Positions 20,062 through 43,656 of a stretch of DNA of 52,613 nt are shown piece by piece. A program made the translations under genes and the position numbers. Every line of letters begins with the position of its first letter. Position 1 is the stretch's first letter. Origin of the DNA: Pirellulales bacterium (GTDB taxonomy: Bacteria > Planctomycetota > Planctomycetia > Pirellulales > UBA1268). The notes under the pieces were generated by a model. The model saw only the letters and a list, made by a program, of their open reading frames with translations, searched no databases and was not told the DNA's origin. Location of the stretch: the NCBI GenBank assembly GCA_044337765.1, contig JBIIMX010000001.1, positions 1-52,613 of the forward strand, written 5' to 3'.

Positions 20062-20112
20062 TGGAGTGGCAAAATCAAACGGTGGCACATGGAGCGAAAA
20101 AGGGAATCGAGC

Positions 20113-26806: not shown

Positions 26807-28270
26807 ATGGTCGAGTGTGGCGTCACGGCTGACACATCTGCTTGGGAGCCCATTGCCTACGCCGCAGATCTCCAGCCACTGTACAGCGAGTTTGGAGACT
26901 ATCCAAGCCACGCGTTTGTCCGAGAGTTGGCTCCTGGAGTCGAGTATCACCAACCCGCGAGCATCGGCGGCCTGAGGACATGGTTACATCGCAAAGTTGA
27001 GTGGCAGTCGCGCTACTTGATGCCCTACCCAGGCGAAGTACCGCCGACCTCGGAAGACCTGCTCGACATCCAGGCCAGATTTGCCGGCCAAAGAGCAACG
27101 TTGAAGGACGGCGATGCCGCCCTCACGAGACTCGACGCGATCATCGATCAGTTCCTGGGCCTGGTGTGCGAGTTGCACGAAAACCAGATGCCGCTCGGGT
27201 TCGTAAATCCCCGGTCAGTGCGATTTGTCCGAGACGCAAGCGGCTCCGAAACCGTGCAGCTGCCAGACTTAGGTTTTGTCTTCAACGTCAACTCGCGCGC
27301 AGCTGCCCTGCCGAAGTGGCTCGAAGATCCCTCCATGAACGTCCTGTTTGACAGCGGCGCTGAGGCGAGGAATGAGGCTTACTATCAATGGATCTGCGAC
27401 AAAAGCCACGCAAACTTCGAGACACTGGCCTTCCAGGACGTGAAAATAGTTGGGCGGCTCATTGCATTCGCGTTGGCTGGCGAGTCGCAAGTGCGGAGGT
27501 GGGGTGGTGGTGAATGCCTGCATACCATCCCGCCACCCGCCGGCACGTTGAACGACACGGCCTGTGGCCCCGTGTGGGATGCAGTGAGTCGGGCAATCTC
27601 CGGTGAAACGCTGTCCGTTGCGGAGCTTCGGGAGGCTCTGCGCCGCGAGGACGCACGGCCAAGCAGGCACTTTCTCGTAAAGCCGCCCAAACCGCCGCCA
27701 CATTGGGTGGTGACGCTGGTGAAGCGGATCGCGAAGCCTGCTCTCGCGTCGGCAGCAGCGCTGCTGGTTGCGGGAGCAACGTGGGCGGCGTGGCAGGCGT
27801 TCGGCCCCCGATACACGTCGATTTGTCCGCATGTCTGGTCGTGGAATAGAGAGCTCTATCCGAGCCTGGTGGACCTCGAATCGCAAAAAGGCGCTGCAGC
27901 CGCGAACGACGTTGCGAAGCAGCGATTCCGTGAATCCCTCAAGCAATACGTGCAGTTGCTAAGGTCCAGCGCAAGTCACCCGTGCGATGGATCGTGCACC
28001 GACACACTCGTCGCATTGACCGAACCGTGGATCGACGATGAAGTCGACGGGACCTTGGAAACCCTGAGGCTGCAGCCTCGACAAAACGATGACGAAGTGG
28101 CGATTCTGACAGCCACAAAAGCCATCGTCGATGAGCTCAACTCGTTGCGCCGCGAAACGTCGCCACCGCTTTTTCAGTCGGCCGCGCAGACGCTTGACAG
28201 GCAACTGTCGCTCCGCGGGGCGGCCGAAGCAGCCGGAGATCGGTCCCCAGTGGAAGACGCCAAACCATGA
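26807..28270 (+). CDS. Single-pass membrane protein; cytoplasmic N-domain with a possible degenerate protein-kinase-like motif
   Basis: 487 aa. TM at ALASAAALLVAGATWAAWQAF. The segment LVCELHENQMPLGFVNPRSVRFVRDASGSETVQLPDLGFVF resembles the kinase catalytic loop plus DFG region, but the HRD Asp, Lys and Asn are substituted. No clear Gly-loop or VAIK. Confidence 0.6.
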   Translation: MVECGVTADTSAWEPIAYAADLQPLYSEFGDYPSHAFVRELAPGVEYHQPASIGGLRTWLHRKVEWQSRYLMPYPGEVPPTSEDLLDIQARFAGQRATLKDGDAALTRLDAIIDQFLGLVCELHENQMPLGFVNPRSVRFVRDASGSETVQLPDLGFVFNVNSRAAALPKWLEDPSMNVLFDSGAEARNEAYYQWICDKSHANFETLAFQDVKIVGRLIAFALAGESQVRRWGGGECLHTIPPPAGTLNDTACGPVWDAVSRAISGETLSVAELREALRREDARPSRHFLVKPPKPPPHWVVTLVKRIAKPALASAAALLVAGATWAAWQAFGPRYTSICPHVWSWNRELYPSLVDLESQKGAAAANDVAKQRFRESLKQYVQLLRSSASHPCDGSCTDTLVALTEPWIDDEVDGTLETLRLQPRQNDDEVAILTATKAIVDELNSLRRETSPPLFQSAAQTLDRQLSLRGAAEAAGDRSPVEDAKP

Positions 28271-28314
28271 ATGCTCACTTTTGCCCGTTGTCTCGTTGTC
28301 TCAGGAGAATCACC

Positions 28315-29637
28315 ATGTCTCGCGTCCTAAAATCCGTAGTTGTCGCGGCAGCTCTCGCGGCCGCAATGCCGGTTGGCACGGCTGTCGCGCAGGGGACCAT
28401 CACCAAAGGCGGCGGGCAGGTTCGTATGTCGCCGAGCGAGAAAGGTTCGCGGTCGGCGGATGGGCGGCGGGATAGCGCCCCCCGCAACATTTACATGGTC
28501 ATTCAAACGGACTCGTTGATGAGTCAGCAGGAGCTGGCGTCCAAATTCGAATCAGCGCGCAAGTCGACCCAAGGGTGCTCGTTTCAGAGCTATGACATTG
28601 ATCCAATTGATCCGAACACCTATACGCTGCTCAAGTCAATTCTGCAGAACGGTGTCGTCCCGCCGAACGCAGGAAGCCAGGGCGCAGTGTCGATCGAGCC
28701 TCTGGAAGGCCAGGACGGCGTGTGGACGGTCAACCTCAAGTCGGACTCCAAATATCTCGAGTCCGCCAAGGTGAAGGTCGCAACCTCCGCACAGGGCGAC
28801 GAGGAGTTGACGATGAAGGCCGAGCCGAAAGACAAGCTCAGTGCCAATCTTCGTTACCACAGCCCCGGCGTCTACATCCTCAAGATGCCGCCCGGTAGTG
28901 CGCCGAAGTCCGCCACGCTCATGGTGTCGGATGAGGCCAAACGCGGGCAGGATGCTCCCGTGGCGATGGAGGTCATTTGGCCCGATGCCGGGCGCTGCTA
29001 CCTCGCAACGCTCAAGGGCGTCGAGGGCGACGAGAAGGAACTGTACGACACACTCAAGGATGGGAAAAAGATCGCCAATCCCATCAAGGGCATCGAAGAT
29101 GCGACGAAAGCAGCCATCGTGGTGGCGAGCTTCAAGGAGGTACTGGCGGAGCCGATCGTTTTTAAGGACGATGCGATTCAGCTGTCATTCCCGAAGCCCG
29201 GCAATGTCGAGCCGAAGCGAATGTGGATGCGGTTCCCGTTGACCAAAACAGAGGAGACCGCGATCCGTCAGGAGCTCGACGCAAAGTTTGCCGGCGACGG
29301 CTTTAAGACGGTGCCCGCGTGGATCCGGGAGAATCAACTCGGGGAGAAGCTGACTCCCGAGGGTTCAACCGGCTGGTTTGAGCTTCCGTGGAATGCCGAG
29401 CATCAGGCATTCGAGCGAACTCTGCCGATCGACACGAAGTCGTGGCAGGAGCGTCTCGTCAACAACAAGGAGTTCATGGGCGACAACGCGATCCTGATCT
29501 ACGAGTTTGAGGGCGAGGATAAGACGCAGGAAATCATCAAGATCGATGGCGGCAAGCGGTATCGGCCGTACCAGGTCGCGGGCTGGCTGACAGGCCTGCC
29601 GAGCGCGCCATCCGCGGGCAAGGGCGGCGGCAAATAG
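28315..29637 (+). CDS. Exported hypothetical protein
   Basis: ATG at 28315, preceded by AGGAG. Signal peptide MSRVLKSVVVAAALAAAMPVGTAVAQG. The alternative start at 28267 forms an ATGA overlap with the previous stop. No recognised domain. Lys/Glu-rich and more A/T-rich. Confidence 0.7.
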   Translation: MSRVLKSVVVAAALAAAMPVGTAVAQGTITKGGGQVRMSPSEKGSRSADGRRDSAPRNIYMVIQTDSLMSQQELASKFESARKSTQGCSFQSYDIDPIDPNTYTLLKSILQNGVVPPNAGSQGAVSIEPLEGQDGVWTVNLKSDSKYLESAKVKVATSAQGDEELTMKAEPKDKLSANLRYHSPGVYILKMPPGSAPKSATLMVSDEAKRGQDAPVAMEVIWPDAGRCYLATLKGVEGDEKELYDTLKDGKKIANPIKGIEDATKAAIVVASFKEVLAEPIVFKDDAIQLSFPKPGNVEPKRMWMRFPLTKTEETAIRQELDAKFAGDGFKTVPAWIRENQLGEKLTPEGSTGWFELPWNAEHQAFERTLPIDTKSWQERLVNNKEFMGDNAILIYEFEGEDKTQEIIKIDGGKRYRPYQVAGWLTGLPSAPSAGKGGGK

Positions 29638-29753
29638 CTGCACGGCGTGGCGCGCGGGCCGCGAGGTCCGCGCGCCACACACACACCGACTGCTCCCGGT
29701 GAAATTGGCTTCGAGTACCGAAAGACCGGTCGAAAACTGAGGAACGATCATTT

Positions 29754-31856
29754 ATGCCACTTCCCAGAGCATTAACTGTCGAGGAGTGCAAACTTCTCCA
29801 AAAGGACGATCTTGTCGAGCGGTACCGTCAGTTCCGAACGGTGCTGGAGACGGTCGAAACGACTTTGGGCGATTTCGCGAAGCGGCCGGCGTTCGCCTCA
29901 ACGTGTGAGGAACTTGATCAACTGGCTGTCCGCATGTCACGTGATCGCTACCGCATCGGCTTTCTCGGCGTCTCGCAGGCTGGCAAATCGACCACCGCCG
30001 GTTGCGTTGTCGATGCGGTCGAAGCCAAGGACAATCCGGCTCCTCCGGGAGGCAAGGGCAAGGCCGCGACCGCCGTAGCCACGCGCATTCGACCCGTTCG
30101 GTCGCCCCACACCGAATGCCCACCAGGCGAAAAGCATCACGTCCAACTCTTGTTCCTCACCGAGGAACAGTTTAATCAGCGAGTGAAGGACATCTTTGGC
30201 ATTCTGGACTTGACCTTCGATGAAACTGCCGGAACTGACGCCTGGCTCGATGCGCTCAACGCTCACGGCACGTCACATCCAACCACCAGCGTGGACGACA
30301 GGGACACAGCGATACGTCTTATTCATGCAAGAAGGAAACACGGCGAGTTGTTGAAGCCGGACGGGGATTCGCCTGCCACTAAGAATGGGAGCTTCGATTT
30401 GGATGCACGACGATCGTACGTCGTGCATCCAGACGACGACACTCAATCGGAGACCCTCCAGTATGCGCTGCTTCGCGAGATGCGCATTTGGTACTGCACC
30501 GACGGTGATAAAGTTCCAGTGACGCTTGAGTTAATCGACTTGCCAGGCTTGGGCGTCGAACGAGAGAGCGACGAGGCCCTCACAACAGCTTTCCTCAAAG
30601 AATTGGACGGAGCATTTCTTTTCAGCGACCGCCAGCAACTCACTGGCAAGCCAGCTGCAACGCTAGCCAAGCACTTGCGTCAGCAGTTTGGCGAGACACT
30701 TTCGGGGCGCATGTGGCTGGTTGCGACGTTTATGCACGAACTGCAGGACCTTGACGACGTTAAGGGCACTATCAAAACTCTTGACGAACAGGTCACGAAG
30801 CATGGTTTTGTCAAAGAGAACGTCGTTTTCGTTGCTACCGGCGTGTTCCAGGCACTGAATGATCGGCAGGAGCCATCAAGAACTGCTTCCATCGATGCAT
30901 GGAAAGCATGCAAGCCGCCTGCTGCATTTCATCCTGAATACGACGACAACAACGAGCTGATCATCCCGCCAGCGATTCAAGCATTTGCAGCTTTTCGTGA
31001 AGCGTATCGAGGTCTGGCGGTAGATGGCGGTATTTCTCGCATTCGCAATTTGATGACGAAGAACGTCGAAGCCGACGTACGCAGGCAAACGCAGGAACAT
31101 GCAGTCGACGTAATGAATCGCCTCATCCAGGCCTTGAGTAAAGACTTGGCAGCATCTCGGCAGATGGGCGGAATGTCCCACGAGCAGATGGTAGACGCCG
31201 CAAAAGCGGCCAGCGCAATCGAGGTGATTGCCGAGAGTCTCAGGCGGCCGCATCAGCAGGTCGACGGCATCGCGGAGGACATCATCGCAAGCCTGGGAGA
31301 ACTGCTGGAGGAACTCTTCGAGAACCGCACTACCGATCCAACCAAGTCTGACAATGCCAGTTGTGGCAATGCCCTCAAGCGGCAAGGCATCGTCAGGGCC
31401 AAACAAGTCATCACGGATGTTGTGAAGGGCGTGCGAGACGACGTTGAAGCACTCACGAACGACTGCTCGGCGATGAGCGTCGAGACGATCAAGGCGGCGA
31501 TTCAGAAATGGAGAGATGACTGCAGCACGCTCGAGACGGGATTGAGCCCAAAGAGTGGCACAGATTTTTCCGAACAGTGCCTGAGTGGGCTCCAAATGCA
31601 GAGCGGATTGGTGGACGAAATGTGGTCCGACGGTCGTGGCCCCAGCATCGCCGATTATCGAGGCTTGATGGAGAAAAAGATCGTGCTCGTAGCACATGAA
31701 TTCGTGTCTCGTCTGGCCAAGGAGTTGGCCGACGCAATGGCAGAGCTTTCTGGCCGCATGAGAAGCGTCGGGGATGAAAGTGCCGCTGCGAATCCTGTGC
31801 ATCTCGAGTCAATCAAGATGATCGAAGGCGAACTGCATCAACTTCAAGCCACCTAG
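29754..31856 (+). CDS. Dynamin-family (bacterial dynamin-like) GTPase
   Basis: 700 aa. G1 RIGFLGVSQAGKSTT and G3 LELIDLPGLGVE (the dynamin-type DLPG), followed by a long helical region. I could not identify a canonical G4 by eye. Confidence 0.7.
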   Translation: MPLPRALTVEECKLLQKDDLVERYRQFRTVLETVETTLGDFAKRPAFASTCEELDQLAVRMSRDRYRIGFLGVSQAGKSTTAGCVVDAVEAKDNPAPPGGKGKAATAVATRIRPVRSPHTECPPGEKHHVQLLFLTEEQFNQRVKDIFGILDLTFDETAGTDAWLDALNAHGTSHPTTSVDDRDTAIRLIHARRKHGELLKPDGDSPATKNGSFDLDARRSYVVHPDDDTQSETLQYALLREMRIWYCTDGDKVPVTLELIDLPGLGVERESDEALTTAFLKELDGAFLFSDRQQLTGKPAATLAKHLRQQFGETLSGRMWLVATFMHELQDLDDVKGTIKTLDEQVTKHGFVKENVVFVATGVFQALNDRQEPSRTASIDAWKACKPPAAFHPEYDDNNELIIPPAIQAFAAFREAYRGLAVDGGISRIRNLMTKNVEADVRRQTQEHAVDVMNRLIQALSKDLAASRQMGGMSHEQMVDAAKAASAIEVIAESLRRPHQQVDGIAEDIIASLGELLEELFENRTTDPTKSDNASCGNALKRQGIVRAKQVITDVVKGVRDDVEALTNDCSAMSVETIKAAIQKWRDDCSTLETGLSPKSGTDFSEQCLSGLQMQSGLVDEMWSDGRGPSIADYRGLMEKKIVLVAHEFVSRLAKELADAMAELSGRMRSVGDESAAANPVHLESIKMIEGELHQLQAT

Positions 31857-31873
31857 GTTTTCGCGGAGTAACA

Positions 31874-34420
31874 ATGTCGAAAAAACCGTTCACGATACTG
31901 TTTCCCGAAGACTGCACCGAGCTGACGGGGGTACGTCGATGTGATTGGAAGTTGCAGGTCACAGACCTCGTTGTGAACGTGCCTTTCACGCCGGGCGACG
32001 TCCCAAAGATGCAGCACTGCACGGTGTTCTTCCATTGGCCCAGCGACTTTGGTTTTCTCTCTCTACAGCCCAAGGTCGCTAGCGAATTGCATAAGTCCGG
32101 TGAGGCTGCGCGCGTCGCAGCCGTAGAGTTCTACAAAAAAAGCGGCAACCCGCTCCGCGGGCAGCTCGTGGCCGACAACTGGTTCGCGTACCGGTTTGCC
32201 GCCGCGGGTCCGCATGAAGCCAGCAAGGATGGCCCCAAGGTGGTCGGCGTCACCATCAACATCGACACCTCGCACGAGCTGTTTCGAGAGCACGTAAAAA
32301 ACATTCCTGGCCAGTCGCTGACAGTAGACATTGACATCGACATCGGCGGTGCGAAGGTAAATTCGAAAACGGTTGAATTGCAGTACGATAAAGTTGTTCT
32401 CAAGGTAACGATTCCAGCCCGACGGCTCGAGCCGTATGACGGTGTCGTCGCGATCGATTTCGGTAATACCAACTCGACACTCGTCGCGTGTCACGATAAT
32501 GCCGGCGTTGCATTTATTCCTTGCGAATACCGGACAATAGCGTCGGGGCAATCACTGGACTCTGTAACGGCGCACGACCCGGTGCCCACTGTGCTGGAGA
32601 TTGTCGAGTACAACGAACCTGCTGAGCAGGGCAAGGCGAGCACGTACAGTGTCAACTACGGCCTGCAGGCTCTCGATACCACCCAGCCCGCCAGGCTCAT
32701 TACCGGCGCGAAACGGATGCTGGCAGATATGCCCGAAAGCAAGTCTGCCCCGCGAACGCTGCGCGTACTTGTAGGCGATGGTCCAGTTCCCGTACCAATT
32801 CCCGCCCACGATCCCGCGGAGATTTTTATCAGCCACATGTTCGCTGCTTTTCTGCACTTTGTGCGAAAGGAGCCCAAACGAGTGGCGATAACCTGCCCCA
32901 GCACATTTTCGGAAACTGAGGCAAACAGGGTGCGCATCGCGACGGTCAACGGGTTGCGCCGCGCCCTACGGCAACACCCGCTGCTCCCTTCTGAGAAAAA
33001 AATAACCGACACAGCCGCAGCCAACACCGTGAAGCCGTGCCTCGATGAATCGACGGCTGCGGCATTCTGGTTCATCCAACAAGAAGTGCTCGAAAGGCGT
33101 GGACGGGGAGCGATCGAATTCCAATACCTTTACCCCAAAGGAATGAACGTCCTCATTTACGACTGCGGCGGAGGTACAACCGATATCTCCCTTGTAAAGG
33201 TCGGGTACGCACCAGGCACGACACGGCTGAAGATAGATGTTTTAGGTCGGCGTGGACACCGAACATTTGGCGGCGATTTCATCACCCTGCAGTATGCGAA
33301 GTATGTGAAGTACCAGATATACGCACGGGATAAGGGTGAACCCGATGACGAGGAAATAAACCAGTTTTTTGCCGAATCTGCAGGCGGCACCAAACAGCCA
33401 CTACTTGCGAGCGTCAATAAGGTTATCCCGACACTTTTTGACAGTAATGCCCCTCGCGTTGGCGCTGCTGCGGAGGCTCGTGCACGCGCTTGGTCGCTAT
33501 GGATTCTTGCCGAGCGGTTGAAGTGCCTTGGGTTTGAATCCGATGAAACGAATGATTCACAGAAGGCGAGTGACTATCGAGAAGACGCGTTTCGGATATT
33601 CTTCAACCGAATTGAACCACCAGCGCCACAAGGGGACGAGAAAAAACGACTGAGTGCCATAATTGGGAAACATGGCTTTGCGGTTGACAAGGAACATATT
33701 CGTACAATGCTCGCGCCGGTGCTTGACGAAACCATTCGCTACGCGAACGAGCTCATAAAAGGTCGCCTGCCCAAGGACGAGGAGGTGCACCGTGTCTATC
33801 TCGTCGGCAACGCGTCACGGTTCCCGATCATCAGCGAGCGAATGCTGGATGCCGAGCGCGGTCTCGGCGTCCGTTTTCTCTCCGAGAAACTCGTCCAGGG
33901 CGGCCCGTCCAGAAGCGACGGATCCCGTCCTGCGATGAGTTACGATGACTTGAAGAACTGCGTGGCCAAGGGCGCCGCAGTGGCGATTGCGCTTCAAAGC
34001 CAGCAGAAGGCGATTGCCGACTGGGATGAAGACGTGATGAAAAAGCTGCCTTACAGTATCGAGTATCAGGATCCAGCCAGGGCTTATCCCCGCGTCCTGT
34101 TTGACTGCGGCACACTCATGGAGGCCTCGAAGGAAGCCAACGAGACGATTCAGATCCACGCCGACGCAAAGGGTCGCGTGCTGACGGATCGGATCCGGTT
34201 GAGTCGCCGGTGGCCAGGGGCAGGCGATAAAGAGCTCGAGGAGTTCCTGGTTTTTCGCTTCCCGGTTCCCTTGGTAGAGGGGCGCTATCGGGTGAGCTAC
34301 GATGGCGAGGGGGGCTACAAGGCGAGTTGCCTGGAGAAGTCGCATAAACAGCTCGTTGCAAAGGGTGAACCGATAATTTTCCCGCCCACGGTGCCCCCGA
34401 GTCAAAGTGGCGAGTTCTAA
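31874..34420 (+). CDS. Divergent Hsp70/actin-fold ATPase (DnaK-NBD-like) with about 190-aa N-terminal extension
   Basis: 848 aa. All Hsp70 nucleotide-binding-domain signatures occur in order: VAIDFGNTNS (phosphate 1), ITCPSTFSETEANRVR, LDESTAAAFWF, VLIYDCGGGTTDISLV (phosphate 2), GHRTFGGDFIT, VYLVGNASRFPIISERM. The start is 17 nt after the dynamin-like stop. Confidence 0.8.
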   Translation: MSKKPFTILFPEDCTELTGVRRCDWKLQVTDLVVNVPFTPGDVPKMQHCTVFFHWPSDFGFLSLQPKVASELHKSGEAARVAAVEFYKKSGNPLRGQLVADNWFAYRFAAAGPHEASKDGPKVVGVTINIDTSHELFREHVKNIPGQSLTVDIDIDIGGAKVNSKTVELQYDKVVLKVTIPARRLEPYDGVVAIDFGNTNSTLVACHDNAGVAFIPCEYRTIASGQSLDSVTAHDPVPTVLEIVEYNEPAEQGKASTYSVNYGLQALDTTQPARLITGAKRMLADMPESKSAPRTLRVLVGDGPVPVPIPAHDPAEIFISHMFAAFLHFVRKEPKRVAITCPSTFSETEANRVRIATVNGLRRALRQHPLLPSEKKITDTAAANTVKPCLDESTAAAFWFIQQEVLERRGRGAIEFQYLYPKGMNVLIYDCGGGTTDISLVKVGYAPGTTRLKIDVLGRRGHRTFGGDFITLQYAKYVKYQIYARDKGEPDDEEINQFFAESAGGTKQPLLASVNKVIPTLFDSNAPRVGAAAEARARAWSLWILAERLKCLGFESDETNDSQKASDYREDAFRIFFNRIEPPAPQGDEKKRLSAIIGKHGFAVDKEHIRTMLAPVLDETIRYANELIKGRLPKDEEVHRVYLVGNASRFPIISERMLDAERGLGVRFLSEKLVQGGPSRSDGSRPAMSYDDLKNCVAKGAAVAIALQSQQKAIADWDEDVMKKLPYSIEYQDPARAYPRVLFDCGTLMEASKEANETIQIHADAKGRVLTDRIRLSRRWPGAGDKELEEFLVFRFPVPLVEGRYRVSYDGEGGYKASCLEKSHKQLVAKGEPIIFPPTVPPSQSGEF

Positions 34421-34438
34421 CAACGCAAGGAGTGCGTC

Positions 34439-37400
34439 GTGGGTGCTTCGTCCAAGGAGGAGCTTCGCAGCCAGCTCGCGAATGAATTTTCGCATGCAGC
34501 AGACCTGTATCGCCAGGTCGCAGGCTTACTCGAGCAGTCCGAACCCGGGCTGAGTCAGGTGTGTCGCGCTTTGCTGGCAGAGCCTCCGGGGTTTCAAGGG
34601 CAGCCCGACCAGATTGCTGATGAAGCAGCCAGCGACAAACCGCAACACGTTATCCACCTGATGCAATGGTGGGCAAGCTACGGTGACTTCGAGGCCGTGC
34701 TGATGAGCGCAGCACCGTCCACTGGAAAGCCGGGCTTTTTTGCTTCGAAGGACAAAGGCTTATCAAAGGCCAAGCTGGAGATCGCCCGTGCAAAGGTATA
34801 CGGCAATCAAGCATGCCGTCCTTTGAACTGGTATGTGCAGCTATCCAAGAGCACAGCCAAAGATAGTTTGTGCAGTGCGGCCGTAGCCGAGGCACTACGC
34901 GTCTATGCCAACGGGGATTGGAAGACGTTTGACGATCTCAAAGTTGATTTTTTCGATGCAGTTACTCGGTCGATCGGGTTGCGGATGCTCTTACTCTGCC
35001 GCCATGATCGGGGACTGTCTGAGAAGGATCTATGCGAACTCGCCGACCAACTGGGGCTCGCCGTCAACAGCGAGCCGGCATCGGAATCACCCGCTACTTC
35101 GGGCGCGGTCCGACCTGCATTGTGGGATTTTGAACGGTCGACAAGGAACATCCGTCCGGCGTTTCGAGTGTCCGGACACCTTCTGCCCGCCACATGCTTG
35201 GTCGCCAGGCCCAAGTCGTACCTGCGTATGGCATCGAAATACGAGAGCGACCAACATGCGTGGAAGCGGGAGAGGTTGATCAAGGCGGCACGGCACAGTT
35301 GGCCGAGCAGTCAAGATTTCGCCAAAAAGATCCTCGGCCTCTTGAGTACGCCCGAGAGGGCGCACAATGGCGTGTCCGCGCTAAAGGCCTTAGCAGGATT
35401 TCTTACACTTGCACTCGAGACCGCACCAGCCAAGGAGCAACTCAAGGAGAAGCAGTCAAACTTCTTCACGCAATTGCAGGAATGCTTGAAGGTAAGCGAT
35501 ACCCGGATACTCGCCGTACGTCCGAACACAGATCGAGCATTTCGTCGAGTTCCGTGTCGCACTGCCGAACAGGAAAACCGCATATGCTACTTGAAGATTG
35601 ACAGAGAAGATATCGCGATTGGGAAATTACGCAGGTGCGAAGCCGAAGACGACGTGTTCGATGCGGTGTGGCTGTACGACCTACACCTGTGGGCGGTCGA
35701 CGAGGTGTCGCAACGATCGAAGCACCTTGGGTACACGGCGTTGATGGCTGCCCTGAATCAAGCAGGCTGCTGGGACAATGCCTGGGAAGAGATCAAGAAA
35801 TCGTTGCTCGGCCTGACCTCTGATGCTTCGGCCGAGGCTATTGCGCAAGCGTTCTCCGCACTGTGGCCCCGCGTGCTAGCTTTTAGGGCTGTAGCGGCCA
35901 AGGAGAAGAGTGGTGCAGAGCAACTGTTTGATGAAGTGGATCAATTACTGAAGGAGATGGTCCACGCCACGCTTCAACTGCTTGAGAAGCGAGGCGGGAC
36001 CACCTTTCCGCCGCGATTCAGCAGGGTTGAGCAGGCTGGCGAAATCGATCTGAAGCAATGGCTGGCAGAGGACGGGCGCTGGCAGGATGGCCACAGTGTC
36101 GAGATTGAGGTGCGTTCCGGTGCAGGGCCGGAACTCGTGGAGGCAGCGGCTCCGACGCGGCTGCAAATGGACCTGCCGGGCTTCGATGAACACAACCCGC
36201 ACGATGTTCGACTTGTGAACATGCCGGGTGTCTTCTTCTGGCGCGGCGGTGATCCACCGCCCTACGTCCGACTTATTCACCAGCACGTCTGCGAGCCAAT
36301 CGTTGCAGCGTTCAGCGGCGGCAGTCCAGCCCCGGTTGATTTCGGCACAGCCCTGAAATCCCTGAGACAAGCTTTCTCATCGGGCGACGGAGCGAAAGCC
36401 TTCGACGGCTTGGTCAAGGCGGCTGTCGAAGGTAATGACAATGCCACAAGGTGGTTGGATTATTTAAAGGAGGAACCCCGCTTTCAACTCGACTGCTTCC
36501 CGAGGATCGAGAATCACGAGGGTAAATGGATACCGTCTGCCCCTGGCGGTGATGACGAGTACGTGCAGTGGGACTACGACGACAGATCCCCCAAAACATT
36601 GATCCGCGTGACGTATGCCATGAACTCAGCAGCCTCCGCCGCTGTTTTCAGCAAGGGTCCCCGGGATAAGTTTTTAGAACTAGCGGCTGCTGACGCTGTG
36701 AACCAATGGTGCGTGCGGGTTGGCGGCGAAGCTACCGAACGGGGCAATGACCTGCTCCGAGCAACGGAGCGGCATTGGGCGTTCGACCATCCGCTTGGCA
36801 CGACTGTTCGGCTTGCTGCTGAGTTGCTCGACCAAATCGGCGAGGCCGGCACCATCGGCAAAACTGTAGATCCGAGCGAAATCGACAAGCTTCGTGACGA
36901 CGGTTATCAGGCCCTGAAGGCCTGGCTCGCCGCTGTCGAGGGAGTCGTGACGCCCGACGACTGGTCGGCCCGGGAGGGGAGCGACCCTCGTGCGGAAGAC
37001 CGCGACACACTCTCGTGGGCTTTCAGTTCCTTGGTGCCGACAGGCCGCACCATCGTGCATGAGTTTGGTGTAAAAGCTTTCGACTACGAAAAGCCGTTTG
37101 CGGGCGCGCTGTCTGCTGGAAAGCCATTTCCGGGCTATGAAGAAATCGATGACATGTCACGCACGTTCTGGACTGGGGCGTGGGCAGAACTCGCAGCTAT
37201 GTGGAACCGTGTGCCTGGACTTTCGGACAAGAACAGACGCGCCCGCGTCCTGTACCAAATCTATCAGGATTTGTCGTTGCGAGAGACTAACGAGTCGGTT
37301 TCCTGGTACGCGAGTGCGAAGGACAAGCTTGTGTCGATTCTTGAAGCTGAGTTTGGATGGGAGCCGTTCCCAGATGAGGATGAAGTTGAGCTGGGGCCCT

Positions 37401-37540
37401 CTCTGGCGGTCGATCGAGTTGAGCTCGAGGACGGGCGAAAGGCTGTGAGCGGCGCAGTAGTGAAGGTAATCGCGAAGGGCTTCAAGCAACGAACTGACCG
37501 AGATGGCGTAACGCAGCCCGCCATCGTCAAACAAAAGTAA
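34439..37540 (+). CDS. Large orphan protein (1033 aa) with GrpE-like C-terminal tail
   Basis: Long uninterrupted ORF with ordinary composition, starting 18 nt after the Hsp70-like stop. No domain is recognised except the last roughly 70 aa (LEAEFGWEPFPDEDEVELGPSLAVDRVELEDGRKAVSGAVVKVIAKGFKQRTDRDGVTQPAIVKQK). This resembles the GrpE C-terminal beta-domain pattern FG.E......DP..H.A.......  G.V..V.QKGY......RPA.V.V. Confidence 0.75.
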   Translation: MGASSKEELRSQLANEFSHAADLYRQVAGLLEQSEPGLSQVCRALLAEPPGFQGQPDQIADEAASDKPQHVIHLMQWWASYGDFEAVLMSAAPSTGKPGFFASKDKGLSKAKLEIARAKVYGNQACRPLNWYVQLSKSTAKDSLCSAAVAEALRVYANGDWKTFDDLKVDFFDAVTRSIGLRMLLLCRHDRGLSEKDLCELADQLGLAVNSEPASESPATSGAVRPALWDFERSTRNIRPAFRVSGHLLPATCLVARPKSYLRMASKYESDQHAWKRERLIKAARHSWPSSQDFAKKILGLLSTPERAHNGVSALKALAGFLTLALETAPAKEQLKEKQSNFFTQLQECLKVSDTRILAVRPNTDRAFRRVPCRTAEQENRICYLKIDREDIAIGKLRRCEAEDDVFDAVWLYDLHLWAVDEVSQRSKHLGYTALMAALNQAGCWDNAWEEIKKSLLGLTSDASAEAIAQAFSALWPRVLAFRAVAAKEKSGAEQLFDEVDQLLKEMVHATLQLLEKRGGTTFPPRFSRVEQAGEIDLKQWLAEDGRWQDGHSVEIEVRSGAGPELVEAAAPTRLQMDLPGFDEHNPHDVRLVNMPGVFFWRGGDPPPYVRLIHQHVCEPIVAAFSGGSPAPVDFGTALKSLRQAFSSGDGAKAFDGLVKAAVEGNDNATRWLDYLKEEPRFQLDCFPRIENHEGKWIPSAPGGDDEYVQWDYDDRSPKTLIRVTYAMNSAASAAVFSKGPRDKFLELAAADAVNQWCVRVGGEATERGNDLLRATERHWAFDHPLGTTVRLAAELLDQIGEAGTIGKTVDPSEIDKLRDDGYQALKAWLAAVEGVVTPDDWSAREGSDPRAEDRDTLSWAFSSLVPTGRTIVHEFGVKAFDYEKPFAGALSAGKPFPGYEEIDDMSRTFWTGAWAELAAMWNRVPGLSDKNRRARVLYQIYQDLSLRETNESVSWYASAKDKLVSILEAEFGWEPFPDEDEVELGPSLAVDRVELEDGRKAVSGAVVKVIAKGFKQRTDRDGVTQPAIVKQK

Positions 37541-37573
37541 AGCCGGTGCACTAGGCCTGATTATGGAGATGGC

Positions 37574-38377
37574 ATGGGTTCGAATCTAAATGCGTTGATT
37601 AAGGAAGGTGTGGGCGGAGGCGCATCTTGGTGGCTCGACGCCCTAGGGATTGTCACGGGCATGATCGCGGCAGCTGTGATCATACTCATCGGGCGGCCCG
37701 CAGGCGGGTGGGCCCAGCAACTCGGGGCAGCCACGGTGATGGCGATCGGGATGTGTGCGGGCGCGGTCTTGCCGTTGCTGTGGCGAGTCGCCGGTGCCCG
37801 CTCCATAGGAAGCCGCTTGGCGGCGCAGCATGCTCCGCCTGACCCGAGTGGTCTTCGGAGTCGTTTTTCTGCGGGCGTATTTCAAGCCAGCAATTTGTCG
37901 CCCGATCGGTGCAGTTCCGAGGACTTACGGCGTGCCGCCGCGCACGCATCCGCCGAATTCGCACGGTTCGCGGCACGCACTGCGATTCCTGCTAGTTTCG
38001 TGGCGTTTCTGGCACCGGTGGTAGCGTTGGTTGGAGGCTGGAATGTGGCGAGGCAGGCCGGGCCGAACACCTATTCATTCCAGTCGATGGCACCGTCGAT
38101 GATCGCGGGAATCGCCTGCGCCGCCGTCGTGGTTCTGCTGATCGAGCTTTACGTGGTGGCCATGCGCGCAGCTCCGTCACGGTGGGCCACTTCCGTGGGT
38201 GGCTCGGGAACGACCAGTGTGCCTGATCATGGCTCAGGGTCGAAGTCAGGGGCCGGCGACGCCCCCCCGGATTTAAAATCAGGTTCTACGATCGACGTTC
38301 CGCCCGTAGCAAAGGGAATGTCGGTGGACGAGTTCACCAGACTATTTGATGGCCCGGGCACATCCGGCGATTCGTGA
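37574..38377 (+). CDS. Polytopic membrane protein, hypothetical
   Basis: 267 aa with at least four hydrophobic segments (LGIVTGMIAAAVIILIG, ATVMAIGMCAGAVLPLLW, FVAFLAPVVALVGGW, MIAGIACAAVVVLLIELYVV) and a Gly/Ser-rich tail. Its stop overlaps the C2 start (GTGA). Confidence 0.7.
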   Translation: MGSNLNALIKEGVGGGASWWLDALGIVTGMIAAAVIILIGRPAGGWAQQLGAATVMAIGMCAGAVLPLLWRVAGARSIGSRLAAQHAPPDPSGLRSRFSAGVFQASNLSPDRCSSEDLRRAAAHASAEFARFAARTAIPASFVAFLAPVVALVGGWNVARQAGPNTYSFQSMAPSMIAGIACAAVVVLLIELYVVAMRAAPSRWATSVGGSGTTSVPDHGSGSKSGAGDAPPDLKSGSTIDVPPVAKGMSVDEFTRLFDGPGTSGDS

Positions 38378-40158
38378 AGGTTACCGTGTCTCGTTCAGGC
38401 GAACCGCAGTTATCGCCGTTCATCATAGCCACGCCGTGGGCGGTGTGGGTCTACGTGTTGTCGCTCGTTTGCTGCCTTCTGCCTCAGGGCGAGAAAAGCG
38501 AGCCTTTAGAAAGATCCGTCCTCACCGTCTCGAACTCCACAGTTCATGTGCCTGAGAACGCACCAAATGGGCTCGCGAACGCGGTGGCTTTCGAACTAAG
38601 CAAGCCGCTCGACTTTCGCCTCGAGGTGCCGGTGACCGTGACTGACGGCTCGGCGAGGCTGGGGGAACACTACGCCATGCGGCGCCGGCCGCGGGTGATT
38701 TTCGAGGCAGGTTCCAAGCAGGGCGTGCTGTCTGGAGACGGCGATGGATGCGACGTGGTCATCACTGACGACCACGAACTGCTCGACGGGGAGCCACGCT
38801 CTTTCGACATCACGCTCGGAACGGTTGAAGGCATCGTGGAACTGGACGCGAGCCGATCGACGTGCCGCGTCAGCATCGATGATGACGAGAAACCACCCAC
38901 CTCTCGCGTCAAGATCCGGTTCGCTTTCAGTGGTGGCGAATTGACGGAGTCGCAGGTCGCAGGTCATTCGCTTTCGGTGCAAGCGGAAAAGGCCCCGGAG
39001 GAAAAGTCGGAGATGACCGTCGTCGTCCAACTGCAGTCCGGCAAGGAGCCGAAGGATCTTGGACGCAAGACTTTCTTCCTCGAACCAGGGCAGACCGCAC
39101 TCACGTTCCGCGTGTCCGACGTTGTGCCGCTCGAACAGCTGAAAGCCTTCGGCCTGACCGATGACGATGCTCCTGGGCCATCTTCGGAGATCATCGTGCG
39201 GCTGCGCGGCCAGCATCCGCTCTACGCCGACGAACCACGGGACCTTACGTTCCGGGTGACCGACAACGACCCAGCCGCGAAACTGTCCATGGCGATCCAA
39301 GACACGGCCGGCCAACCACTCGACCGAATCCTGCCCGGCTCCCCCTTCTGGGTCGTCGCCGATGTGGATCGCGGACTCCGCCTCGGATTGCCCCTTCAAA
39401 TCAACCTCGACAAGGGCGGCCCGATTGTCACCGGCACGCTCGCCGCAGGAGAGCGAAGCGTCCGTCTCGGACCACTGAGTGCAAGCCCGGGCCCTGAAAG
39501 GACGATCGAGGTCGCGATGGCGGTGCCCGCGAACGCGGCTGCGCGACCCTTCGTCGAGCTGCCCGTTCCCGAGAGTCTTCCCAAGGGGCCCAAGGACGAC
39601 AGTCGATTCGCGGTGATCGTCGTCAACACGTCGCGACTGCGGGAACCGGACAATGGCATCCTGGAGGCCGTGTGGAAATACATGATACCGAACGGAAAAT
39701 CTTCCTTCCGGAATGGCATGCTGCTCGTGGGGCCGGCGCGACCGAAGGTTCTTTCGGGAGAGACATTGCCGGTTGAGAGTGTGGGCTTCACCCCGCTCGT
39801 CAAGGACGGCCAGGGCGTCTCAGCGCAACTGAACAAGGTCTTGGAAGTCGTTTCGTACGTGCGGCAGGAGAACCAAGATCCCACCATCCGCATCGTCGTT
39901 GTCTGGGCAGAACGCGGCCTCGAATCGTCAGTCGCGGCATCCCGACTAAAGCCCATCGACCGGGAGAAGTATGGACCGATCTCGTTCCTCTGCCCGAGCG
40001 CTGACGTCGATGGCAGGGGTGCGATACGAGATGCCCTCGTCGGAGTCGGCAGCGCCGATGTCGAAAGCGTGACCGTTCGCTGCCCGGACGTGGACGAATT
40101 ATCCGAGCACATTCGCTGGGCGATCGATGGATTCCGAGCACCGGAAAAGACCAAGTGA
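38374..40158 (+). CDS. Exported/anchored protein C2 with Calx-beta-like repeats (paralog of C1)
   Basis: 594 aa with an N-terminal hydrophobic segment. Calx-beta-like unit: VPVTVTDGSARLGEHYAMRRRPRVIFEAGSKQGVL...VVITDDHELLDGEPRSFDITLGTVEG, with further similar units. The C-terminal two-thirds aligns with C1 (GSPFWVVADV, AGERSVRLGP, IRIVVVWAERGLE, ISFLCPSAD). Confidence 0.8.
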   Translation: MKVTVSRSGEPQLSPFIIATPWAVWVYVLSLVCCLLPQGEKSEPLERSVLTVSNSTVHVPENAPNGLANAVAFELSKPLDFRLEVPVTVTDGSARLGEHYAMRRRPRVIFEAGSKQGVLSGDGDGCDVVITDDHELLDGEPRSFDITLGTVEGIVELDASRSTCRVSIDDDEKPPTSRVKIRFAFSGGELTESQVAGHSLSVQAEKAPEEKSEMTVVVQLQSGKEPKDLGRKTFFLEPGQTALTFRVSDVVPLEQLKAFGLTDDDAPGPSSEIIVRLRGQHPLYADEPRDLTFRVTDNDPAAKLSMAIQDTAGQPLDRILPGSPFWVVADVDRGLRLGLPLQINLDKGGPIVTGTLAAGERSVRLGPLSASPGPERTIEVAMAVPANAAARPFVELPVPESLPKGPKDDSRFAVIVVNTSRLREPDNGILEAVWKYMIPNGKSSFRNGMLLVGPARPKVLSGETLPVESVGFTPLVKDGQGVSAQLNKVLEVVSYVRQENQDPTIRIVVVWAERGLESSVAASRLKPIDREKYGPISFLCPSADVDGRGAIRDALVGVGSADVESVTVRCPDVDELSEHIRWAIDGFRAPEKTK

Positions 40159-42149
40159 CACAATTCACGCTGCTGATTCGGACATCGTTTTTGGTATGTG
40201 TCGTCGCACCCGCCTGCATAGTGGCAGCAGGCGGACGGAATGCCCATGCGCAGAGCGGTGCGCCACGCGCATCGCCGCCATCGACCGCGGCACACACCAC
40301 GTTTGTGCCGGACACGCTGATCCCGCGGCTCGCCATGGGGGTGAGACGAGGAGTCAAGGACTCGAGAGAGGTCGCCGAATTGAGGGACCGACCGGGCGGT
40401 GCGATCGTAGGACGAGTTCCACTGTTTTCAGCGATGTTCGTCCACGCTGAACAACGACTCGACTCCCAGGACTGGGTTCTGCTCGCCAGCGGGTACGCGG
40501 GCGACAAGGCAGGCAAGCGGGGCTGGGTGCCCCGCTCCGATATCGAGGTGTTTTCAACCCGCTACGGCTACGTCTTGCACGACACGGGAAACGCGACGGA
40601 GTTTTTCCCGACGCCCGGGGACGCCTACGCGATCGTCCCCGGAATCGGCCCCAAGGGCCAAGCGACGCCCTCGCAGTCGGCCTCCGTGCTTGGGCGGCCG
40701 GACGCCGCTGGCTGGCAGCCGTTGCGGCGAACTGACCAGATGCCCTTCATGGAGTTGGAATTTGATCGGCGGTCTGGTTATCCGTCGACCACTCCATCGA
40801 TTGCGACGCCGTACGACGGCCGGCTTGTACGCGTCGGAGTCATTTGTGGCGGCCCGGTCGACAAGGTGGAGCTTGCGAGGCTCAAGGAAGAGGCCGACCG
40901 GAAGCCCGCGATCGAGATGTTGTTTGTCGTCGATGAGACGTTGAGTATGGGCCCATTCTTCCCTGGTGTGTCTGACTTCATCCGAGCGGTAGGCCAGGCG
41001 GCGGGCAACGGCCGGCAACCCCGAATCGCTGTTTCGTACTACACGGATGGACCAGCAGGTGAAAGAACGACCTGTGAGCCTTTGCGAAACGCGACGCCAC
41101 AGTTTGTCACGGCATTGGCGAATTCGGTGAAGCAGCACAAGCAGAAGATTCCCCCTGGAGACTTCATCAATCCGCCGGAGCGGATGCTTGAGGGGATGCG
41201 GGACGCGATCCAGAAGGCAGGATTTACAAAAGGTAACACGTCGATCGCCGTGGTGATCGGCGACACCGGCCACGAGCCGACGGACCCTGACAAGAAGAGA
41301 TTGCTCGACGGAGTGGCCGGAGTGGTTGCTGACCACGGCCTCATGGTCTTCTTCGTGCATGTAGGCCTAGCGAACAATCAAATGAACCCGGCTCAACAAC
41401 TGTTCAAGGATGACATGCTTGCATTGCAGACGCGTGTCGCCAAGCGTGACAAAGCTCTTGCCGATCGCGTCATATACACCACGGCGAATGCCGGCAACCT
41501 GACCGCGGAACTCGAGGGATTACGGCGCGAGGCTGACCGATTGGCCGAGCAGGCCCAGTTGATGGCTGGCCGTATCACCTCGCGCAACACCAACACGATG
41601 CCGGGGCCGGCCCTGGTCGCCACGATGAAGCAGGACGGCGTGACCTTGGCCCAATTCAACGACGCGCATCAGCAAATCTACGTGCCAAGCTATGCGTGGA
41701 TGGCATCACCGAGAGACGCGGGGGCGAATGGCGGATCTCGCGCCCGTCTGTCGAGATACATCTGCCTCGCCGCGGAGGAACAACAGGCACTCGCCGCCCT
41801 GCTGGAGTCGGCGCAGAGGAATGTTGACGCTGGATTGGCCGTCGATCACGACAATGCCGTGCAGGCGTTCGTGCAGTCGCTGCGGGCTGCAACGACGGGC
41901 TCAGCCGCCGTGGAAGCCGCTCACGCGAACTGGAAGAAACTGGGGCCCGATCGAACGGCCGGCGGATTTCTCCACAAATTCCTTGGCCTCGGCATCCAAG
42001 CAGAGATGCTTTTCAGTTCGAGCCCACCAGGCAACACTGAAGAGATGGCCGATGCGAAAAACTCACTGCAGGCCCTGACGACCGTGGTACGCGAGGCCAG
42101 CCGTGACAAAGACAGGTTTTGGTTCGAGGCCACCAGCCTGGCGCCATGA
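40155..42149 (+). CDS. Exported vWA domain protein V2 (paralog of V1)
   Basis: 664 aa. Signal-like FLVCVVAPACIVAAG. MIDAS-like MLFVVDETLSM and VIGDTGHEPTDP. Shares LAMGVRR, ICGGPVD, NPPERMLEGMRD and FWFEATSLAP with V1. GTGA overlap with C2. Confidence 0.8.
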   Translation: MTQFTLLIRTSFLVCVVAPACIVAAGGRNAHAQSGAPRASPPSTAAHTTFVPDTLIPRLAMGVRRGVKDSREVAELRDRPGGAIVGRVPLFSAMFVHAEQRLDSQDWVLLASGYAGDKAGKRGWVPRSDIEVFSTRYGYVLHDTGNATEFFPTPGDAYAIVPGIGPKGQATPSQSASVLGRPDAAGWQPLRRTDQMPFMELEFDRRSGYPSTTPSIATPYDGRLVRVGVICGGPVDKVELARLKEEADRKPAIEMLFVVDETLSMGPFFPGVSDFIRAVGQAAGNGRQPRIAVSYYTDGPAGERTTCEPLRNATPQFVTALANSVKQHKQKIPPGDFINPPERMLEGMRDAIQKAGFTKGNTSIAVVIGDTGHEPTDPDKKRLLDGVAGVVADHGLMVFFVHVGLANNQMNPAQQLFKDDMLALQTRVAKRDKALADRVIYTTANAGNLTAELEGLRREADRLAEQAQLMAGRITSRNTNTMPGPALVATMKQDGVTLAQFNDAHQQIYVPSYAWMASPRDAGANGGSRARLSRYICLAAEEQQALAALLESAQRNVDAGLAVDHDNAVQAFVQSLRAATTGSAAVEAAHANWKKLGPDRTAGGFLHKFLGLGIQAEMLFSSSPPGNTEEMADAKNSLQALTTVVREASRDKDRFWFEATSLAP

Positions 42150-42168: not shown

Positions 42169-42765
42169 CTAGCGGCATTCGCACGCTTGGCTATTTGAAA
42201 CGCCTGTCGAAAAGCCTGACCAGGGAGCGATCCCAACAGGATTCATTCCGTATCCCCATCCCGACTGACTGCCGCTCTCGATTGGGGAGGAATAGACGGG
42301 GCGGTAGTGTGACTGCCGCGTGCTGGATTCGTGGATGGCGGGATCGATGAAAATCACCATAACGCGGTCGCTGATCGCCATATCCCGCTCTTGGCGAATC
42401 ACGGCCTCGACCACACGGGCGATCTTGGATGGACCGGAACTCCGAGTCGCCAGAGATACGTCGGGCCCAGCGTCGATCGCGATGAGAATTCCGCGATCAC
42501 GGCTGTAAAAATGCCAGTCGGCTGGGGCGGCAGTGACGATCCTCACCAGTTCAGCGTTCTCAAAAGCCGACCCTTCCTTGCTATCCGTGTATTCAGTTTT
42601 GATGTAGTCCGCGCTCTTAGACGCAATATCGGCACCGTGAGCAACGACCCACCTCCCCTCTGGGGCTGAGATTTGGCCGCATGCAACGTCGCACACAAGA
42701 GCGATGAGAAGGCATGCGGCTGCTCTGACCGGCATAATACGCATAATCCGCAAGCTCCTGGCCAC
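42169..42765 (-). CDS. Small exported protein X2 (paralog of X1), Cys-containing C-terminal tail
   Basis: 198 aa. Signal peptide VRAAACLLIALVCDVACG. Blocks shared with X1. Ends in SQACECR. Convergent with V2 across a 19-nt gap. Confidence 0.7.
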   Translation of the reverse strand: MARSLRIMRIMPVRAAACLLIALVCDVACGQISAPEGRWVVAHGADIASKSADYIKTEYTDSKEGSAFENAELVRIVTAAPADWHFYSRDRGILIAIDAGPDVSLATRSSGPSKIARVVEAVIRQERDMAISDRVMVIFIDPAIHESSTRQSHYRPVYSSPIESGSQSGWGYGMNPVGIAPWSGFSTGVSNSQACECR

Positions 42766-43616: not shown

Positions 43617-43656
43617 AGCGGGTAGCTCGCACAACCAAGAGGCGTCACCGGGTAGA

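Follow-up and report, generated by a model that had tools for sequence, protein, structure and literature searches.

A dynamin-like GTPase and an Hsp70-like ATPase co-inherited within an eight-gene, envelope-spanning operon of a minority of Planctomycetota

We analysed a stretch of 52,613 nt, hereafter the window, from Pirellulales bacterium (assembly GCA_044337765.1, contig JBIIMX010000001.1, positions 1-52,613, forward strand), in which two adjacent genes, C and D, encode a protein assigned by its predicted structure to the dynamin superfamily and a predicted Hsp70-like ATPase, respectively. The two genes are strictly co-inherited. They lie within an array of eight genes, A to H (26807-42149, forward strand), and the real unit is this envelope-spanning operon, not the gene pair. 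An initial annotation of the stretch had described C and D as apparent operon partners, with coordinates and a 17-nt spacing that were exact; the linkage between the two genes stands, but the unit comprises eight genes rather than two. The operon is limited to a minority of Planctomycetota, in which it is accessory. No published description of a cluster combining a dynamin-like protein (DLP) and an Hsp70 was found in the literature searched, and with respect to that literature the A-H operon is previously undescribed. As for its function, the reading that we favour, to which we give slightly less than an even chance, is that C, D and E form the core of a membrane-remodelling operon with an accessory role in envelope stress or conflict (anti-phage), and not in housekeeping trafficking.

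The eight genes are closely packed (Table 1). Stop and start codons overlap by 4 nt at the A/B, F/G and G/H junctions, and gaps of 17 to 33 nt were measured at the C/D, D/E and E/F junctions, that of C/D being 17 nt. The sole long spacer of the operon, 116 nt, separates B from C. Directly after the stop codon of B it contains a perfect 14-bp G+C-rich hairpin without U-tract; a 65-nt stretch at this hairpin folds with a minimum free energy of -39.1 kcal/mol (z = -2.9), and the hairpin possibly serves in the processing or stability of the RNA. A Shine-Dalgarno-like GGAG/GAGGA precedes both C and D. Scanning for promoters and terminators returned nothing beyond shuffled expectation. The GC content is 0.555-0.57 across 30-36 kb, versus 0.60-0.69 in the flanks. 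The predicted topology of the products is mixed: C, D and E are cytoplasmic, A is bitopic, F has about four transmembrane (TM) helices, and B, G and H are extracytoplasmic.

Homologue searches showed that C and D belong to small families (37 and 28 clusters at 90% identity) whose members come from metagenomes or Planctomycetota metagenome-assembled genomes (MAGs) and share contigs. The whole array of eight genes recurs at ~30% identity, with matching sizes of ~478, 420, 684, 808, 1060, 295, 592 and 669 aa, on two contigs that were located by exact protein look-up (L001/L002 and a JGI contig). When a single genome of each GTDB species was scanned, 37 loci (designated L followed by a number) were obtained, the relevant ones being mostly labelled Planctomycetaceae, Pirellulales, Isosphaeraceae and Gemmataceae; the Gemmataceae carriers comprise Fimbriiglobus, Urbifossiella and Zavarzinella formosa DSM 19928. 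Using tblastn and all-against-all clustering, the order A-B-C-D-E was recovered in at least 20 GTDB loci of these groups, and in essentially every locus with enough DNA; F, G and H follow A-E in many of them. A heads the array in 22 loci, B is kept in 23, and E, found in 29, always comes after D. C was located directly upstream of D in 26/26 assessable Planctomycetota loci, the two genes either overlapping or being separated by at most 97 nt. The pairing pointed out by the initial annotation is therefore not peculiar to the window. We also calculated, for each couple, the correlation of pairwise distances between loci. It was highest, among the pairs tested, for C and D (r=0.96 on 23 loci); the values for the other couples were 0.88 (A-D), 0.87 (A-C), 0.86 (D-E) and 0.72 (B-D).

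The C protein comprises N-terminal helices (aa 10-61), a GTPase domain (~aa 62-400) and a helical stalk (aa 406-699). The motifs by which C and D were first recognised are all present in the translations. In C, the G1 P-loop GVSQAGKST occupies aa 72-80, with G72, G77, K78, S79 and T80 invariant in 22 sequences, and both T110-R111-x-x-P (G2) and D262-L-P-G265 (G3) are invariant in the family alignment. At the G4 position, the window protein has T325-F-M-H328, degenerate with respect to the [NT]KxD guanine-specificity motif. TYMH or TFMH is found in the three aligned sequences nearest to it (61-67% identity), and T[KRH]xD in all other aligned orthologues. As the canonical G4 is missing from the window clade, its specificity for GTP and guanine is uncertain, and judging from these motifs the nucleotide specificity may have changed in this group of DLPs.

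Sequence searches did not settle the family of C. The window protein alone scored 16.8 bits against Pfam Dynamin_N, under the gathering cut-off of 27; this model was matched by 17/22 members of the C family (E<0.01, best 5.3e-8). No dynamin was retrieved from the PDB with C, either by sequence or by profile, and PADLOC returned a LeoBC match (3.3e-5, 21 bits) covering only the N-terminal GTPase half. The assignment was therefore made by structure prediction. We built an AlphaFold2 (AF2) model on the family alignment, with a predicted local distance difference test score (pLDDT) of 84.7 and a predicted template-modelling score (pTM) of 0.67. When this model was compared with the PDB using Foldseek, the first 39 matches were all from the dynamin superfamily, with E-values of 3e-16 to 1e-4. 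They were SynDLP (3e-16), BDLP (7e-10), IniA, Campylobacter DLP1/2, Drp1 and dynamin, together with MxA/B, mitofusin/Fzo1 and OPA1. On the evidence of the model, C is a dynamin-superfamily protein, in agreement with its first description.

D is made of three parts (Table 1): a family-specific N-terminal domain, a nucleotide-binding domain (NBD) with enlarged helical subdomains, and a C-terminal domain. The first part corresponds to the extension of ~190 aa already recognised in the initial annotation, and it is kept in the family, most representatives aligning from profile position 40-110 or earlier. The Hsp70 motifs are DFGNTNS (aa 195-201), ITCPSTFSE (339-347), DESTAAA (391-397), YDCGGGTTDISL (429-440), FGGDF (465-469) and LVGNASRFP (643-651). 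Most of the motif residues of C and D are invariant over 22-25 homologues at 25-40% identity to the window proteins. The catalytic residues D195, K280, E392, D430 and T435 of D are invariant in the family, and hhalign places K280, E392, D430 and T435 on K70, E171, D194 and T199 of DnaK. With the D family profile, hhalign aligned aa 271-709 on residues 61-383 of E. coli DnaK with a probability of 97.9% (E=5.6e-13). The Pfam HSP70 model scored 27 bits on D, above its gathering cut-off of 20.6, on aa 422-480 only. The AF2 model of D (pLDDT 82.4, pTM 0.86) retrieved DnaK, BiP, Ssb, Hsc70 and Hsp110 as top Foldseek matches, the best at 1.9e-19. Profile and model concur in identifying D as an Hsp70 with a predicted intact ATPase site, as had been proposed. 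We rejected the possibility that D is an orthologue of DnaK, HscA, HscC or YegD, the scores of the NCBIfam DnaK and HscA models being far under their cut-offs.

The C-terminal region of D had been described as unlike the substrate-binding domain (SBD) of DnaK. This holds for the sequence, since hhalign gave a probability of only 0.2% between aa 700-848 and the DnaK SBD, and for the absence of the lid; it does not seem to hold for the fold. In the AF2 model, aa 715-835 form a nine-strand beta-domain. The top 50 Foldseek matches of D are all NBD+SBD constructs with ~680 aligned columns, at an rmsd of ~9 for ATP-open states and ~28 for ADP states. The NBD by itself could fill only ~540 columns, and none of the top matches is an NBD-only PDB entry. 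From these two facts we infer that the C-terminal domain superposes on the docked SBD-beta; it is thus probably an SBD-beta-like sandwich, docked in the model on the NBD as in ATP-state Hsp70. No alpha-helical lid (SBD-alpha) is present in the model, the chain ending 13 residues past the beta-domain, and the sole helix near the C-terminus has 4 residues (aa 842-845). The tail PPxQSGxF/I contains residues that are invariant across the family. D as modelled is probably an Hsp70 without lid, and not an NBD joined to a foreign domain.

These results bear on the trivial explanation that the adjacency of C and D is fortuitous or that their families are mis-assigned. In its favour, the window DLP lies under the Pfam threshold and the PDB sequence searches returned no dynamin. 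Opposed to these are the structural matches at 1e-16 and 1e-19, together with the constant adjacency and the correlation reported above. We rejected this explanation, which the conservation data refute, and regard it as having practically no chance of being right.

Among the other products of the operon, A is a bitopic protein with an Ala-rich TM helix at ~aa 310-335 and an extracytoplasmic C-terminal domain with conserved Cys. It has no Pfam match. Its cytoplasmic N-terminal domain shows the pattern LHxxGxxLGxxxPxSV ... LPDxGF ... DxRxxARLIA. The profile segment LHxxGxxLGxLQPxSV...PDVGF aligns to LHAQGVVHRDLKPSNIL...DFGFA of RSK2 with an E-value of only ~0.2, and weak alignments (E ~0.2) were also obtained with the alphaE/catalytic-loop/DFG segment of PknI and LanKC. 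In these kinase alignments the DFG Asp is retained, and the HRD Asp, Lys and Asn are replaced by G, Q and S. We tentatively consider this domain as a candidate pseudokinase. B has a hydrophobic segment at aa 15-42, either a signal peptide or an N-terminal anchor, the remainder being extracytoplasmic, and matched nothing in Pfam or the PDB. E is a soluble, Trp-rich protein without TM segment; it likewise has no Pfam or PDB match, no relatives were detected outside the cluster, and a homologue search with its profile returned 6 close relatives only. The hypothesis that E is a degenerate second DLP or Hsp70 was discarded (hhalign probabilities of 1.9% and 0.1%). F is a membrane protein, and an open reading frame (ORF) of 270-320 aa occupies its position in other loci.

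G consists of an N-terminal TM anchor, one or more Calx-beta-like repeats and a conserved C-terminal domain; its family profile matched the Calx-beta domain of the Na/Ca exchanger with E=8.1e-5. H has an N-terminal signal/TM segment, a putative vWA domain and a C-terminal helical region. Its profile matched the vWA domain of collagen VI (E=1e-3), and Pfam VWA/VWA_4 was found in 3/10 members of the H family, the window protein being below significance. The residues of its MIDAS-like motif D260-x-T262-x-S264 are invariant or nearly so, and a possible SH3b-like segment contains the invariant G123-W124. Nothing in Pfam or the PDB matched the proteins that occupy the G and H positions in distant loci, nor the small conserved ORF f12. 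Divergent from the operon, the window also encodes a paralogue of each, G' and H' (Table 1). G' has 16 CxxC repeats (aa 147-310) instead of Calx-beta, and a 15-nt tandem repeat in it would encode a Gly-rich tract. G' and H' are nearer to the G and H of L003 (40-53% identity) than the in-operon G and H are. On the other side, a 198-aa ORF without Pfam match is convergent with H and occupies the same position in L001, L006, L007 and L009; it may be a ninth component.

A possible alternative is that the operon serves the biogenesis or secretion of a surface structure. In that case B and the vWA and Calx-beta proteins would be exported adhesins or matrix, D would be a private chaperone or assembly ATPase, and the DLP would promote a vesicle-type release, as proposed for LeoABC of enterotoxigenic Escherichia coli (ETEC). 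Three to four of the eight proteins are indeed extracytoplasmic with adhesion-type domains, the similarity to LeoBC, though weak, points the same way, and the duplicated G'/H' with a different repeat module suggest a diversifying surface-exposed part. However, B, G and H have ordinary signal or anchor sequences and do not require a dedicated chaperone for export by Sec; nothing resembling a secretin or another outer-membrane component is found; and D, with its unique N-terminal domain, co-varies most tightly with the DLP and not with G or H. We consider this explanation unlikely, although it comes first among the alternatives.

The distribution of the operon is in favour of an accessory stress or conflict role. 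In an exhaustive search of 1.84 billion representatives with the D profile and HMMER, the number of proteins was 163 at E<=1e-30 and rose to 448 at E<=1e-10 and to 1268 at E<=1e-3, the 163 family members being clusters at 50% identity. Among the ~60 clusters whose source information was inspected, only one comes from an isolate, Zavarzinella formosa (WP_020471905.1), in which the locus lies at ~198.6-214.5 kb of NZ_JH636442.1. No relatives were found in phage and plasmid collections. The genes upstream of A differ from one locus to another (TPR proteins, FtsK-like ATPase, MacB/HlyD, hybrid histidine kinase). One Gemmataceae MAG, PLDW01, harbours a pair of clusters that differ in subtype (L021 and L030): E is long in one of them (~1118 aa), and in the other a short E (~716 aa) is combined with a D extended to ~939 aa. 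Clusters with a short E are the predominant kind in Gemmataceae (L024-L030, L032, L033). The small number of clusters, the single cultured host, the variable flanks and the two copies in one MAG together indicate an accessory module, not core planctomycete biology.

Six of the loci, L003, L005, L007, L014, L019 and L036, have labels including Alphaproteobacteria, Beijerinckiaceae, 'Ca. Kuenenia' and deltaproteobacteria. L003 encodes an H-like protein 53% identical to H' of the window, which suggests that it is a mis-binned planctomycete contig, and L036 is full of frameshifts.

The initial annotation had drawn a parallel with the dynamin and Hsp70 that, with a J-protein, act in vesicle scission and uncoating in eukaryotes. 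Both protein families are present, as it proposed. The rest of the parallel found no support: the operon is rare and accessory, and it contains neither J-protein nor nucleotide-exchange factor, which leaves the analogy with dynamin/Hsc70/auxilin without its third member. Neither DnaJ (J-domain) nor GrpE was detected with Pfam and NCBIfam in the eight operon proteins or in the scanned flanking ORFs; HPD tripeptides occur only in C and H', in both cases outside any J-domain. A eukaryote-like scission and uncoating reading is thus not supported by distribution or partners. Its broader form is a constitutive prokaryotic dynamin/Hsp70 cycle, serving invagination, vesicle scission and uncoating, macromolecule uptake or FtsZ-less budding. 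Planctomycetes are known for unusual membranes and are described as lacking FtsZ, and this general background is in its favour, as are the strict co-inheritance of a genuine DLP and an Hsp70, the presence of the cluster in budding Gemmataceae such as Zavarzinella formosa, and the lack of toxin-like effectors. Yet members of the family are very few (163 clusters at 50% identity, with virtually a single host in culture), its genomic context is variable with two paralogous copies in one MAG, no J-domain, nucleotide-exchange factor, coat-like or BAR-like partner accompanies it, the DLP is paddle-less, and most components are periplasmic with adhesion-type domains. Such a constitutive machine appears improbable. 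On grounds of rarity and distribution, an accessory stress or conflict role is favoured over a constitutive trafficking or division machine.

A bolder proposal is that a trans-envelope receptor complex recruits the DLP, which would pinch or tubulate the cytoplasmic membrane and then be disassembled by the J-independent, lidless Hsp70, the whole being an analogue, conceivably a relative, of eukaryotic scission and uncoating. If this were true, a dynamin-Hsp70 cycle would give some Planctomycetes a receptor-triggered vesicle formation or uptake. We grant it only a slim chance.

The operon is adjoined, on the side of H and convergent with it, by a complete-looking DO-GTPase/GAP1-N2 conflict system (42933-50672, mostly on the reverse strand; Table 1), which matches the planctomycete GYF-linked variant of such systems (Kaur et al. 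2020, PMC7159879). In L011, the same genes k, j and i are found directly upstream of A, the cluster being inverted relative to k-j-i when compared with the window. The i and j proteins of L011 are 60-65% identical to those of the window and A-D only ~30%, which suggests that one locus has diverged fast or undergone xenologous replacement. In L035, A is preceded by a DO-GTPase2-like/beta-helix gene, a homologue of which is at the same position in L022.

A further possibility is that the operon is not autonomous but belongs to the adjacent DO-GTPase/GAP1-N2 system as a variable arm specific to planctomycetes, the dynamin replacing the tubulin of firmicutes and actinobacteria. The convergent GAP1-N2 and DO-GTPase2-like genes of the window (45048-49674), with their GYF and TM companions, speak for it, as do the k-j-i genes of L011 and the DO-GTPase2-like genes upstream of A in L035 and L022. 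GAP1-N2 neighbourhoods, including planctomycete ones, also recruit Hsp70, extracellular vWA, kinase and tubulin/cytoskeletal NTPases (PMC7159879). Dynamin, on the other hand, is never mentioned in the text or supplement of that study, the GAP1 and DO-GTPase models matched none of the A-H proteins, and most loci with 3-5 kb of flank have unrelated neighbours without GAP1. Recurrent ORFs of ~700 and ~400 aa upstream of A in other loci were considered as cryptic GAP1 or j homologues and set aside, as they proved to be TPR, FtsK, MacB/HlyD, histidine kinase or similar proteins. The idea of a variable arm is distinctly unlikely in our view. With GAP1 missing from most loci, we treated the operon as autonomous, though recurrently associated with such systems.

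We propose the following scheme for an accessory role in envelope stress or conflict. C, D and E would be the cytoplasmic, nucleotide-driven core of a self-contained envelope-spanning operon. The periplasmic vWA and Calx-beta proteins, with A and F, would form a membrane platform sensing an envelope event (ligand binding, damage or phage attack). This platform would recruit the paddle-less DLP, whose GTP-dependent assembly would remodel, seal or pinch the cytoplasmic membrane. D, needing no J-protein, would act on a single client of its own, either the DLP or E, and thereby control the assembly or recycling of the polymer. Defence had been mentioned in the initial annotation as an alternative. 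There is some support for this conflict flavour in the DO-GTPase/GAP1-N2 adjacency of the window and L011, in the DO-GTPase-like genes of L035 and L022 and in the weak LeoBC match; it is not proven. The lower GC content across 30-36 kb and the contrast in L011 between the identities of i and j and those of A-D were also counted in favour of an accessory or conflict character.

Several observations weigh against this scheme. No recognisable effector (nuclease, protease, pore or TIR) was found in A-H. Conflict systems typically associate a constant core with a variable effector, unlike the present operon, in which all eight components are constant. These two features are the chief objections to a classical defence system. 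The DO-GTPase adjacency was observed in only 4 of ~25 loci. The DLP of the window clade has lost the canonical G4, which makes its GTP specificity uncertain. A hydropathy scan of C revealed no hydrophobic paddle or membrane-binding segment, so that an action of C on membranes is assumed from its family. The assignment of A as a putative pseudokinase is drawn from matches at E ~0.2, and to E, B and the N-terminal domain of D no fold could be assigned. Taking both sides together, we ranked the accessory stress or conflict role first, followed by the biogenesis of a surface structure, the arm of the GAP1-N2 system and, last, the constitutive machine.

The window contains two further elements upstream of the operon. 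A 7.65-kb integrated element at a tRNA-Arg(CCG) gene is bounded by 24-nt att repeats and encodes an integrase, a primase, a prohead protease and a helix-turn-helix protein (Table 1); it looks like a satellite-like element or prophage remnant. The att-bounded part (8.1-15.8 kb) stops 11 kb before gene A, and the hypothesis that the operon is carried by an integrase-bearing island was accordingly dropped. Closer to the operon, a 719-aa protein has prenyltransferase/squalene-cyclase-like repeats, with a match to SQHop_cyclase_C at 5.8e-6, just below cut-off. A homologue of this protein (47% identity) adjoins the cluster in L001 (~21029-22200, reverse strand) and in L002.

Table 1. Features of the window, with positions on the 52,613-nt stretch
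Feature	Position	Strand	Description
Gene A	26807..28270	+	487 aa
Gene B	28267..29637	+	456 aa
B-C spacer hairpin	29647..29678	+	14-bp stem
Gene C, DLP	29754..31856	+	700 aa
G4 position of C	30726-30737		T325-F-M-H328
Gene D, Hsp70-like	31874..34420	+	848 aa
D N-terminal domain	31874..32428	+	aa 1-185, beta-rich in AF2 model, family-specific
D nucleotide-binding domain	32429..34003	+	aa ~186-710, helical subdomains enlarged
D C-terminal domain	34016..34420	+	predicted beta-sandwich of ~120 aa (aa 715-835) and tail PPxQSGxF/I
Gene E	34439..37540	+	1033 aa
Gene F	37574..38377	+	267 aa
Gene G	38374..40158	+	594 aa
Gene H	40155..42149	+	664 aa
ORF convergent with H	42169-42765	-	198 aa
H'	23002-24984	-	660 aa, H paralogue, DxTxS motif
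G'	24981-26666	-	561 aa, G paralogue divergent from operon
Tandem repeat of G'	25540-25749		15-nt unit
GYF_2+DUF4190	42933-43778	-	conflict-system neighbour
C-terminally anchored protein	43657-45051	-	464 aa
GAP1-N2+M	45048-48383	-	1111 aa, TM segment; PF20013 1.6e-17
DO-GTPase2-like gene	48364-49674	-	conflict-system neighbour
GYF_2+RDD	49887-50672	+	conflict-system neighbour
Integrated element	8038-15786		7.65 kb
tRNA-Arg(CCG)	8038-8113		site of integrated element
att repeats	8093-8116 and 15742-15765		24 nt
Tyrosine integrase	8066-9376		in 7.65-kb element
DUF3987/Toprim primase	10190-12628		in 7.65-kb element
Prohead protease S78	13954-14637		in 7.65-kb element
Prenyltransferase/squalene-cyclase-like protein	20089-22248	+	719 aa

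As far as is known, bacterial dynamins act either singly or as pairs of DLPs. An obligatory and co-evolving partnership of a DLP with an Hsp70-type ATPase is new relative to the literature searched. If C and D act on each other, they would provide the first example in bacteria of a dynamin polymer under the control of a chaperone-type ATPase, and D would be a natural instance of an Hsp70 that has no lid, needs no J-protein and serves one dedicated client. Five unannotated families (A, B, E, F and the N-terminal domain of D) are also defined by the operon, which connects the putative remodelling of the cytoplasmic membrane with periplasmic sensors of predicted vWA/Calx-beta type. It represents a testable candidate for a new envelope-defence system or for a specialised membrane-trafficking device in Planctomycetes, of which Zavarzinella formosa DSM 19928 (WP_020471905.1) is the one carrier available in culture.

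Several known systems resemble the operon in part. With the eukaryotic dynamin/Hsc70/auxilin machinery of clathrin endocytosis it shares, by analogy only, the link between a dynamin GTPase and an Hsp70; it differs by its rarity, by its periplasmic vWA/Calx-beta partners and by the absence of J-protein and of any clathrin-like or adaptor-like gene. Eleos (LeoA/LeoBC) and the ETEC LeoABC vesicle-release locus are likewise based on dynamins, and the weak LeoBC match recalls them. Membership in Eleos was rejected, as neither LeoA nor a second DLP is present, the LeoBC match is of 21 bits only and the gene complement is entirely different; the GajB and Jet matches of PADLOC were discarded as spurious. 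A similar logic is found in the DO-GTPase/GAP1-N2 systems, which associate a membrane-proximal GTPase, an Hsp70, a TM-anchored extracellular vWA protein, a kinase or kinase-like protein and peptidoglycan- or ligand-binding domains, and in which NBD-only Hsp70s have been noted (PMC7159879). In A-H, by comparison, the GTPase is a predicted dynamin, and GAP1, FNIII, GrpE, DnaJ and a variable effector are all absent. Among bacterial DLPs (SynDLP, Nostoc BDLP, Mycobacterium IniA, Campylobacter DLP1/2 and B. subtilis DynA), C is only 10-14% identical to its counterparts. These usually occur as a tandem pair or a fusion, whereas C is single, with D and E as obligatory partners. It nevertheless shares their predicted GTPase-neck-stalk fold, and SynDLP, like C, has no obvious hydrophobic paddle. 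Finally, D differs from Hsp70/DnaK by the absence of the lid and by the addition of a 185-aa N-terminal domain, enlarged NBD helical subdomains and the PPxQSGxF/I tail, but it shares with it all the NBD catalytic residues; its predicted beta-domain of ~120 aa probably lies where SBD-beta docks in the ATP state.

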